From the IMG/VR virus record IMGVR_UViG_3300044638_007100: a stretch of 64,000 nucleotides of DNA; one strand, 5' to 3'. Below, piece by piece: positions 14,141 through 18,625 of the stretch. This stretch comes from a virus. A program made the translations under genes and the position numbers. The notes below the pieces were generated by a model. It saw only the letters and a list, made by a program, of their open reading frames with translations. It was not told the origin of the DNA and did no database searches. Each line of letters opens with the position of its first letter. Position 1 is the stretch's first letter.

Positions 14141-14462
14141 GATACTTCTTGAGAGATTCAATCGTTTTGTTCATACTTGTGAACAAAACCTGAATATCAG
14201 TTTCAGGAGGAAATCCCATTATAGCAACTGATTTTCTCAAATTCTCTTTCATTTCTAATGCTGCTGGGTCATCAGAAAGAGATAATCTAGTATACATTAT
14301 ACGTTGTTTATCAAGCAAAATTGTAAGTTTTTCAATATGTTCTAATTTTTCTTCACGATCCATCATAGCAAAAGTAAGAATACTTCCGTAAAGTTCTTCT
14401 TGTAATTTGTTAATTTCTTTCAGTTCATCCTGAATAATTTCAGAATCAAAAAATTTACTCAT
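14133..14462 (-). CDS. Conserved cyanophage protein (DUF1825-like)
   Basis: MS.FFDSEII..EL.EI..LQ...QRIMYTRLSLSDDP pattern; usual position between gp59 and gp32. Confidence 0.65.
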   Translation of the reverse strand: MSKFFDSEIIQDELKEINKLQEELYGSILTFAMMDREEKLEHIEKLTILLDKQRIMYTRLSLSDDPAALEMKENLRKSVAIMGFPPETDIQVLFTSMNKTIESLKKYLD

Positions 14463-18146: not shown

Positions 18147-18182
18147 ATTTTACATAAAAAAAGGGAGGATGTCAATCCTCCC
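18147..18182 (-). promoter_or_regulatory. Fused terminator/sigma70 promoter (-35 box forms the hairpin loop)
   Basis: GGGAGGA-TTGACA-TCCTCCC-TTTTTTT; TTGACA(18175-70), 17 bp, TAAAAT(18152-47). Confidence 0.75.
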
Positions 18183-18186
18183 AGTT

Positions 18187-18288
18187 TCAGGCAACTTGTG
18201 GTTTTTTTGCCATATTCAGTTGTGCTACTTGAAGGAGTTTTTCCTTCTTTGCTTTTGTTTTGAGATAGCGAACGAAATAAGTGTTCAT
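18187..18288 (-). CDS. Small basic peptide (33 aa)
   Basis: MNTYFVRYLKTKAKKEKLLQVAQLNMAKKPQVA; ATGA overlap with the upstream DUF4278-like ORF. Confidence 0.55.
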   Translation of the reverse strand: MNTYFVRYLKTKAKKEKLLQVAQLNMAKKPQVA

Positions 18289-18422
18289 TTGTGCCCCTCC
18301 TTTACATACTTAATACCACGATAGGTTTCGTTGTATTGTTGGGGTTGCTGCATCATTTGCTGTTGGTATTCAATACGCTTTTGGGTATCATATTCAACAC
18401 CACGATATACGACTTTGGACAT
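18285..18422 (-). CDS. DUF4278-like peptide (45 aa), candidate glutamine-synthetase-inactivating factor
   Basis: MSKVVYRGVEYDTQKRIEYQQQMMQQPQQYNETYRGIKYVKEGHK; two YRG(V/I).Y motifs; AAGGAG ribosome-binding site. Confidence 0.7.
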   Translation of the reverse strand: MSKVVYRGVEYDTQKRIEYQQQMMQQPQQYNETYRGIKYVKEGHK

Positions 18423-18454
18423 TAGGTTTGCTCCTTTACTTTTTAGGTATTGGT

Positions 18455-18498
18455 GCGTTGCTTCCCAAATGGTACTTCCGTCGCGTGTGCGATCAACG
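18455..18498 (-). ncRNA. Glutamine riboswitch, glnA motif (class I), compact form
   Basis: CGTTG-[TCGC acac GCGA]-CGGAAGTA-[CCA tt TGG]-GAAGCAACGC reproduces the P1/E-loop consensus CGUUG...GGAAGU...GAAGCAACGC. Confidence 0.85.
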
Positions 18499-18506
18499 TA
18501 CTGTAT

Positions 18507-18542
18507 ATATTAGCATAAAATCAAAAAAGTAGCAACTGATAC
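18507..18542 (-). promoter_or_regulatory. Promoter with an NtcA-type box (GTA-N8-TAC) near -35
   Basis: gtagcaactgatac at 18529-18542; extended -10 TGcTAATAT at 18515-18507; 16-nt gap between box and -10. Confidence 0.55.
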
Positions 18543-18625
18543 CAAAACTGTATCATGCTGCTACCTTTTTAAAAAACTATCGCGTGAGAAATTTTTGGGG
18601 GAAATTTTTTGCCCCCTCAGGGAAA

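Follow-up and report, generated by a model that had tools for sequence, protein, structure and literature searches.

A minimal glutamine riboswitch cassette with two small genes and a candidate NtcA operator in a T4-like cyanomyovirus

Introduction

In cyanobacterial hosts, a cassette of an NtcA box, a glutamine riboswitch and a DUF4278 gene was described in 2018 (PMC6212724, PMC6316151). In Synechocystis sp. PCC 6803, the gene gifB carries an NtcA site in its core promoter, centred at -7.5, and an RF01739 aptamer in its 5' UTR, and encodes the 149-aa DUF4278 protein IF17, which has an IF7-like C-terminal part that inhibits glutamine synthetase (GS) (Klahn et al. 2018, PMC6212724; Bolay et al. 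2018, PMC6316151). In the model for this leader, bases 3' of helix P1 mask the ribosome site, and glutamine raises translation (PMC6212724). PMM1846/Yfr6 of Prochlorococcus MED4 and other picocyanobacterial short DUF4278 genes encode a tiny DUF4278 protein behind an NtcA motif and a leader that responds to glutamine, and are expressed in nitrogen excess.

Glutamine riboswitches (glnA RNA) are already known in cyanophage and marine phage genomes (Weinberg et al. 2010, PMC2864571; S-CREM1, PMC9964418; Melnitz, PMC9004378), where only the RNA was listed. In the searchable literature, no report was found that links a phage glutamine riboswitch to DUF4278-like peptides, to a coupled second peptide or to NtcA boxes, and no paper was found that links DUF4278-like peptides to phages or describes such a cassette in phages. 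Little is known on how cyanophages sense the nutrient status of their hosts, though host-like metabolic genes are known.

Here, a phage-borne, minimal form of the host arrangement is described. The parallel to host nitrogen control, drawn in an initial annotation of the DNA, was borne out by the match to gifB and PMM1846 (PMC6212724, PMC6316151). Unlike gifB, which is a host gene, the phage locus encodes a 45-aa peptide without the GS-inhibiting C-terminal part, has its box centred at about -35.5, where it is also a terminator arm, and includes a coupled second gene, ORF33. PMM1846 differs in being a host chromosomal gene with a type-2 (Downstream-peptide, RF01704) aptamer.

Methods

The analysed DNA, referred to as the window, is the 64,000-nt stretch of the IMG/VR virus record IMGVR_UViG_3300044638_007100. 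A pattern scan of IMG/VR yielded 120 viral loci; the loci compared are referred to by L numbers. Covariation was counted on 33 distinct compact classical-type aptamers. The helices for the pair counts were parsed by a script, and the MAFFT alignment was left out (the long-P2 subgroup was four columns out of register). For leaders with two aptamer cores, 77 distinct tandem leaders were drawn from L010-L129.

Results and discussion

Genomic context and layout of the cassette

The DNA belongs to a T4-like cyanomyovirus; the 64-kb window carries PhotoRC-II, wcaG RNA, a group I intron and tRNAs. Among isolates, the Synechococcus phages S-SRM01 (76% DNA identity across the locus, same gene order) and DSL-LC02, which come from freshwater and estuarine settings, are the closest. 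The whole cassette lies on the minus strand and forms an insulated transcription unit of about 340 nt, with terminators at either end; it is complete and self-contained, and probably an early unit of the phage. Upstream lies a 120-aa gene (18988-18626, minus strand). All of the cassette parts listed in the initial annotation were located on the minus strand, at or adjoining the positions given there. The small ORFs had been thought to escape annotation; the S-SRM01 record, however, lists homologues of both, and the DSL-LC02 record that of the 45-aa one, as hypothetical proteins.

Glutamine aptamer

Rfam model RF01739 matched positions 18452-18500 (minus strand) with 43.1 bits, above the gathering score of 35 (E 4.7e-6 in the 64-kb window), in agreement with the glnA riboswitch read earlier from the letters. 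P1 is formed by 18498-18494 with 18460-18456, spanning 43 nt from P1 to P1. P2 (18492-18489 with 18484-18481) has 4 bp and P3 (18472-18471 with 18466-18465) only 2 bp, so both are as short as had been noted. The junctions occupy 18480-18473 and 18464-18461, and both conserved junction motifs are present. The tertiary linchpin, which in the glutamine-bound crystal structure is the G23-C60 pair of Ren et al., as cited in PMC6212724, corresponds to G18478 with C18455.

The fold is conserved among the 33 viral aptamers. The variable P1 pair is C-G in 29 and G-C in four, with no mismatch, and the window has the rarer G-C form. The linchpin pair also covaries (25 G-C, 8 C-G, none broken), and 13 and 18 pair types were counted in P2 and P3, respectively, likewise free of mismatches. 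A 2-bp P3 like that in the window occurs in 9/33. By score, fold and covariation, the RNA is a genuine type-1 glutamine riboswitch aptamer.

Leaders of related phages

Two-core leaders are found in cyanomyoviruses at the PSSM2_320 locus of P-SSM2, in P-SSM5, P-SSM7, S-SZBM1, S-SRM01 and DSL-LC02/03, and on many IMG/VR contigs. These relatives share with the window the box and the outer aptamer halves, and they encode members of the ORF45 family that are up to 96% identical, with a second ORF overlapping the stop codon; S-SRM01 additionally shares the synteny and the terminator-embedded box. The majority of relatives have two aptamer cores; 48 of the 77 distinct tandem leaders contain an ORF of about 50 codons inside the second P2. 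The AUG of this enclosed ORF falls in the 5' strand of the second core's P2 (for example L001 2691-2940 and L002 2296-2545, and also L003-L008).

A reading of the two cores as side-by-side aptamers was given up on the evidence of the linchpin and of P1. Among the leaders whose linchpin bases distinguish the two topologies, 13 are compatible with interlocking alone and none with a side-by-side arrangement alone. In the two leaders with a variant P1 base, pairing is possible only between strands 1 and 4 and between strands 2 and 3. These comparisons support interlocking of the two cores in relatives.

The window, L071, L031, L097 and L108 differ in having the outer core only: a 2-bp P3 hairpin occupies the site at which the other leaders hold an inner permuted core, ORF-bearing or not. 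In alignment with S-SRM01 and L026, the window is collinear from the terminator to the first junction motif and then goes straight to P3 and the 3' strand of P1, which indicates that it carries the outer core alone. Since its peptides are 93-96% identical to those behind complex leaders, the extra RNA layers are evidently optional. On this comparison, the window is the minimal form of a widespread cyanophage cassette.

Promoter and terminators

The upstream 120-aa gene ends in an intrinsic terminator, a hairpin with a U-run (18521-18572, minus strand; -25.9 kcal/mol, z -7.36, equalled by 0/200 shuffles). The 3' (descending) arm of this hairpin contains both the GTA-N8-TAC box and the -35 hexamer of the cassette. 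Its stem is preserved despite base changes in S-SRM01, L026 and L071.

A sigma-70-type promoter was read from the sequence at 18507-18535 (minus strand). Its -35-like TTGCTA (18535-18530) lies within the box and is separated by a 17-nt spacer from the extended -10 TG-n-TAATAT at 18515-18507, the TGcTAATAT motif pointed out in the initial annotation. The aptamer begins about 7 nt past the -10, and the predicted transcription start site (TSS) is at about 18502-18499. The promoter region is collinear and nearly identical in L071, L026 and S-SRM01. A further ACGGAAGTA, at 14381-14389, falls within a 109-aa gene and was discarded as a chance match.

The two-gene unit is closed by an intrinsic terminator at 18163-18182 (minus strand; 8-bp stem with 5 G-C pairs, T-run), as had been noted. 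The loop and 3' arm of this hairpin carry the TTGACA of the next promoter, a promoter-like TTGACA-17-TAAAAT at 18175-18147 (minus strand) for the following gene (63 aa, phrog_878). The overlap of terminator and promoter at the 3' end of the cassette mirrors the one at its 5' end.

The main promoter class among the relatives is built differently. At 20-60 nt upstream of the first aptamer in L017, L020, L025, L038 and some 40 further loci, TTGACT is followed directly by TAAATA or TATATA, which we take to resemble the cyanophage late-promoter motif. The TATAAT -10 of this class lies within the loop of a small conserved hairpin. With a late-promoter-like motif beside a TATAAT promoter, units of the main class may be transcribed both early and late.

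The GTA-N8-TAC box

The palindrome GTA-N8-TAC noted near the -35 was found at 18542-18529, centred at about -35.5 if the TSS is near 18500. Within the window, the pattern occurs 13 times against 9.8 +/- 3.4 expected, which is chance level, so that the significance of the box derives from comparison with relatives and not from its local frequency. In 64 of 122 distinct homologous viral leaders, the 90 nt upstream of the first aptamer contain a perfect box, with 0.02 perfect boxes expected per leader (background 2.7e-4 per nt). In the count with sequence clusters and controls, 62 of the 122 leaders, in 52/110 clusters, had the box. The 63 other palindromic N8 patterns gave a mean of 2.2 and a maximum of 12 in the same leaders, far below the count for the box, and N7 and N9 controls also stayed below it. 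The box is thus conserved non-randomly, and the idea that it is a chance match and mere terminator arm was dropped after these counts. The extended flanks TGTA...TACA occur in 38/62 boxes; those of the window are G...T.

Box offsets cluster at -58/-60, -44 and -38, in three unrelated sequence contexts. In the largest class, the box is placed 8 nt upstream of a full TTGACT-17-TATAAT promoter and about 50 nt upstream of the TSS. In another class, it is found 13 nt before a TAWATA hexamer that adjoins the aptamer. In the class comprising the window, L071, L026 and S-SRM01, it lies 16 nt before the -10 and is embedded in the terminator. The distance from the box to TAWATA is 13 nt for 44 of the 61 boxes scored.

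Taken together, the comparative counts make it probable that GTA-N8-TAC is a real NtcA-type operator, with NtcA as the natural candidate for the protein that binds it. The NtcA layer of the initial annotation stands in so far as the box is conserved among relatives and repression is plausible; within the window, however, GTA-N8-TAC is no more frequent than expected by chance, and the box also serves as a terminator arm. It could therefore be argued that the window's own box is no operator at all, only an arm of the upstream terminator together with a constitutive early -35, and that the riboswitch is the sole nitrogen input. The hairpin is strong at -25.9 kcal/mol, changes in the N8 among relatives track the hairpin partner, the window does not have the T...A flanks of the extended NtcA consensus, and around half of the homologous leaders do without a perfect box. 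We nevertheless consider this reading rather unlikely: a promoter-proximal perfect box would hardly arise by chance in a cassette where half of the homologues have one, and the box recurs in three contexts of unrelated sequence (offsets -58, -44 and -38).

If the operator is real, NtcA would fairly likely act on it as a repressor. For comparison, NtcA represses gifA from sites with centres at -30.5 and -28.5, and activation goes with a centre at -41.5, equivalent to N22 to the -10 (PMC6316151). Repression is favoured because no activating site is as close to the centre at about -35.5 as the repressed gifA sites are. The window box overlaps the -35, which fits polymerase occlusion, and boxes over core promoter elements are also those of gifA and of gifB (-7.5); in the main class of relatives, the box is upstream of a complete promoter. 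Such a position fits neither of the classical geometries, for repression or for activation, so the sign of regulation could vary from phage to phage or have been misjudged here.

The opposite sign would give a different physiology: NtcA would raise the transcript in nitrogen stress, translation would await glutamine, and the peptides would be made only on an upshift after starvation. Such activation would agree with the NtcA sites predicted in cyanophages by Sullivan et al. (2010), which were proposed to drive genes in infection-induced nitrogen stress (PMC3037559), with the remark of Klahn et al. that boxes overlapping the -35 usually activate (PMC6212724) and with the additional upstream site of Anabaena gifA, which is thought to be activating (PMC6316151). 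The geometry of a class II activator was not found, however. N16 separates the box from TAATAT in place of the required N22 (about -41.5), which is about two-thirds of a helical turn off, a recognisable -35 hexamer (TTGCTA) lies inside the box, and an N22 spacing between box and promoter occurs in none of the homologous leader classes. Activation is therefore regarded as very unlikely.

Expression platform and switch direction

The aptamer is followed by a 30-nt platform with the Shine-Dalgarno sequence AAGGAG at 18436-18431 and the start codon at 18422. In the putative expression platform (18430-18456, minus strand), the free leader is predicted to form a weak helix in which bases just 3' of P1, including the linchpin C18455, pair with the Shine-Dalgarno. 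This anti-SD helix has -4.0 kcal/mol, compared with -1.8 +/- 1.75 for shuffles (z about -1.2), and is not significant alone. The same topology reaches -7.5 kcal/mol in L031 and L097, and S-SRM01 and DSL-LC03 have different complementary sequences at the same place in the leader. In all window-type leaders, the linchpin base is also within the anti-SD helix.

Because the anti-SD arrangement matches the gifB model, we infer by analogy that the riboswitch is an ON switch. An OFF switch, or an action via RNA stability instead of ribosome access, is a very unlikely alternative. It draws on the weakness of the helix in the window and on the related glutamine-II class, for which sequestration of the ribosome site within the pseudoknot has been argued. 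Against it, the sharing of the linchpin base with the anti-SD helix is common to all window-type leaders, and both the only tested type-1 leader (gifB) and the tested type-2 leader of MED4 raise expression with glutamine (PMC6212724).

The two small genes

ORF45 (18285-18422, minus strand) encodes the 45-aa peptide with two YRG(V/I)xY motifs that had been noted. Across 20 distinct DNA versions, differences at codon positions 1, 2 and 3 amount to 1089, 685 and 2752, and the comparison with DSL-LC02 shows 14 synonymous and two non-synonymous codon changes. By these counts, ORF45 is under purifying selection. ORF33 (18187-18288, minus strand) encodes the coupled, strongly basic 33-aa peptide and overlaps ORF45 by ATGA. 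It is 79% identical in S-SRM01, and 19 of 20 distinct loci have a second small ORF, of one of two sequence types, that overlaps the stop codon of ORF45. Judged from codon pattern and conservation, ORF45 and ORF33 are real genes.

ORF45 belongs to phrog_5049 (E 1.9e-10). The family has 187 relatives at E <= 0.001, several of them on contigs of 140-239 kb; they are named 'hypothetical protein', apart from one evidently spurious label, and no real functional name was found among the 187. Pfam model PF14105 (DUF4278) scored 20.7 bits (E 5.5e-4), below the cut-off of 25.3; it was the sole match in 24/24 family members, always below threshold. The nearest atlas clusters are also DUF4278 (scores 0.96 and 0.91). 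The label DUF4278-like holds as a family-wide, consistent similarity, but the Pfam score does not reach the threshold; on these matches, ORF45 is DUF4278-like and not a certified DUF4278 member. An AlphaFold model was of low confidence (pLDDT 59.7, pTM 0.24), and a sequence search of the PDB for a related solved structure returned only noise.

The ORF45 family looks phage-specific at this level of similarity, since a scan of 185,579 species genomes gave matches on only two short MAG contigs, both viral-looking. One is labelled Bacteroidota (L130) and the other a Poseidoniales archaeon (L131), both unlikely hosts, and L130 also encodes a window-type ORF33. The two contigs are probably cyanophage DNA placed in the wrong bins.

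A profile of the second ORF matched 30 fusion peptides (E 2.5e-9 to 5e-5; next match 0.92). In 29 of these, which are longer, the match is N-terminal and a YRG-YRG domain comes after it; in the remaining one, a YRG peptide, it covers the C-terminal half. The helix precedes the YRG part in, for example, L025 (8451-8618), L012, L014 and L016, and follows it in L108 (5536-5667). Fusion in both orders argues that the products of ORF45 and ORF33 work together. Against the profile of the other second-ORF type, ORF33 of the window scored E of only about 0.1, yet ranked first of 250 small ORFs, and BLASTP of ORF33 against a helix-YRG fusion gave no match. By this comparison, the ORF33 type of the window is only a positional equivalent of the fused type. 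After the fused gene in L107, L051 and L021, a conserved hydrophobic ORF of about 30 aa replaces the basic helix peptide; it may encode a membrane micro-protein.

Do the peptides act on glutamine synthetase?

Because of their regulatory context, the peptides probably act in host nitrogen metabolism or assimilation. The initial annotation went further and had them tune host GS. In that case ORF45, with ORF33, would be a phage GS inactivating factor that copies the logic of gifB and shuts GS down at high glutamine. The regulatory elements are indeed those of gifB and PMM1846 (PMC6212724). All 24 family members examined have the sub-threshold DUF4278 match, and both peptides are basic, like the inactivating factors. 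IF7 folds on binding, and the low-confidence fold would fit a peptide that does likewise.

The protein itself, however, argues against this. The DUF4278 part of IF17 is its N-terminal moiety, which is dispensable for GS inactivation, and the arginine and lysine residues that bind GS belong to the IF7-like C-terminal part (PMC6316151, PMC6212724). ORF45 aligns to the DUF4278 part only and, at 45 aa, leaves no room for an IF7-like C-terminal region. A search of longer proteins returned no IF17-named relative, close relatives were found on viral contigs only, and even for the short DUF4278 proteins of the hosts, GS inhibition is unproven. Because DUF4278 is the dispensable part of IF17 and no link to IF17 was found, an action on GS is unsupported: the Pfam match is sub-threshold, the IF7-like region is absent and the family looks phage-specific. 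A phage inactivating factor of the gifB kind is thus considered unlikely, and GS is a doubtful candidate, one among several possible targets.

Proposed mechanism

In the mechanism favoured here, host RNA polymerase would start at the sigma-70-type promoter whose -35 hexamer lies inside the GTA-N8-TAC operator. In a nitrogen-starved host, where 2-oxoglutarate is high, NtcA would probably bind the box and block the -35. In transcripts made without glutamine, the bases just 3' of P1 would pair weakly with the Shine-Dalgarno. Binding of glutamine would recruit C18455 to pair with G18478, the ribosome site would be freed and translation switched on. ORF45 would be translated, followed by ORF33 through the overlapping stop and start codons, so that production of both micro-proteins would be confined to infected cells replete with nitrogen. 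As a whole, this combination of NtcA repression, a glutamine ON switch and coupled micro-proteins in nitrogen-replete cells is put at somewhat better than even. If it is true, the phage reads both cyanobacterial nitrogen signals, 2-oxoglutarate via NtcA and glutamine via RNA.

A larger reading is more speculative and, in our estimate, improbable as a whole. In it, the YRG-repeat peptide and the basic helix would make up a phage-specific two-peptide effector, made in nitrogen-replete cells alone and gated by NtcA in transcription and by glutamine in translation, that hits a central node of host nitrogen assimilation (GS, PII/PipX or another glutamine-consuming step) and redirects nitrogen to phage production; the window would be its minimal form, on which the interlocked, gene-enclosing riboswitches were built. 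With one 43-nt core, a 30-nt platform and two ORFs, the window is the simplest version and the easiest to test, and a natural control for the interlocked, gene-enclosing riboswitches of related phages. A conserved phage family under strong purifying selection also offers a second route to the role of the short host DUF4278 proteins.

Other features of the window

Two tRNA-like genes matched RF00005 at 61458-61575 and 61647-61759 (minus strand), with 45.6 and 54.6 bits. Neither was called by ARAGORN, and in both the usual 11-13 nt of the anticodon arm are replaced by 51-60 nt. They could be tRNA genes with an intron, or disrupted ones.
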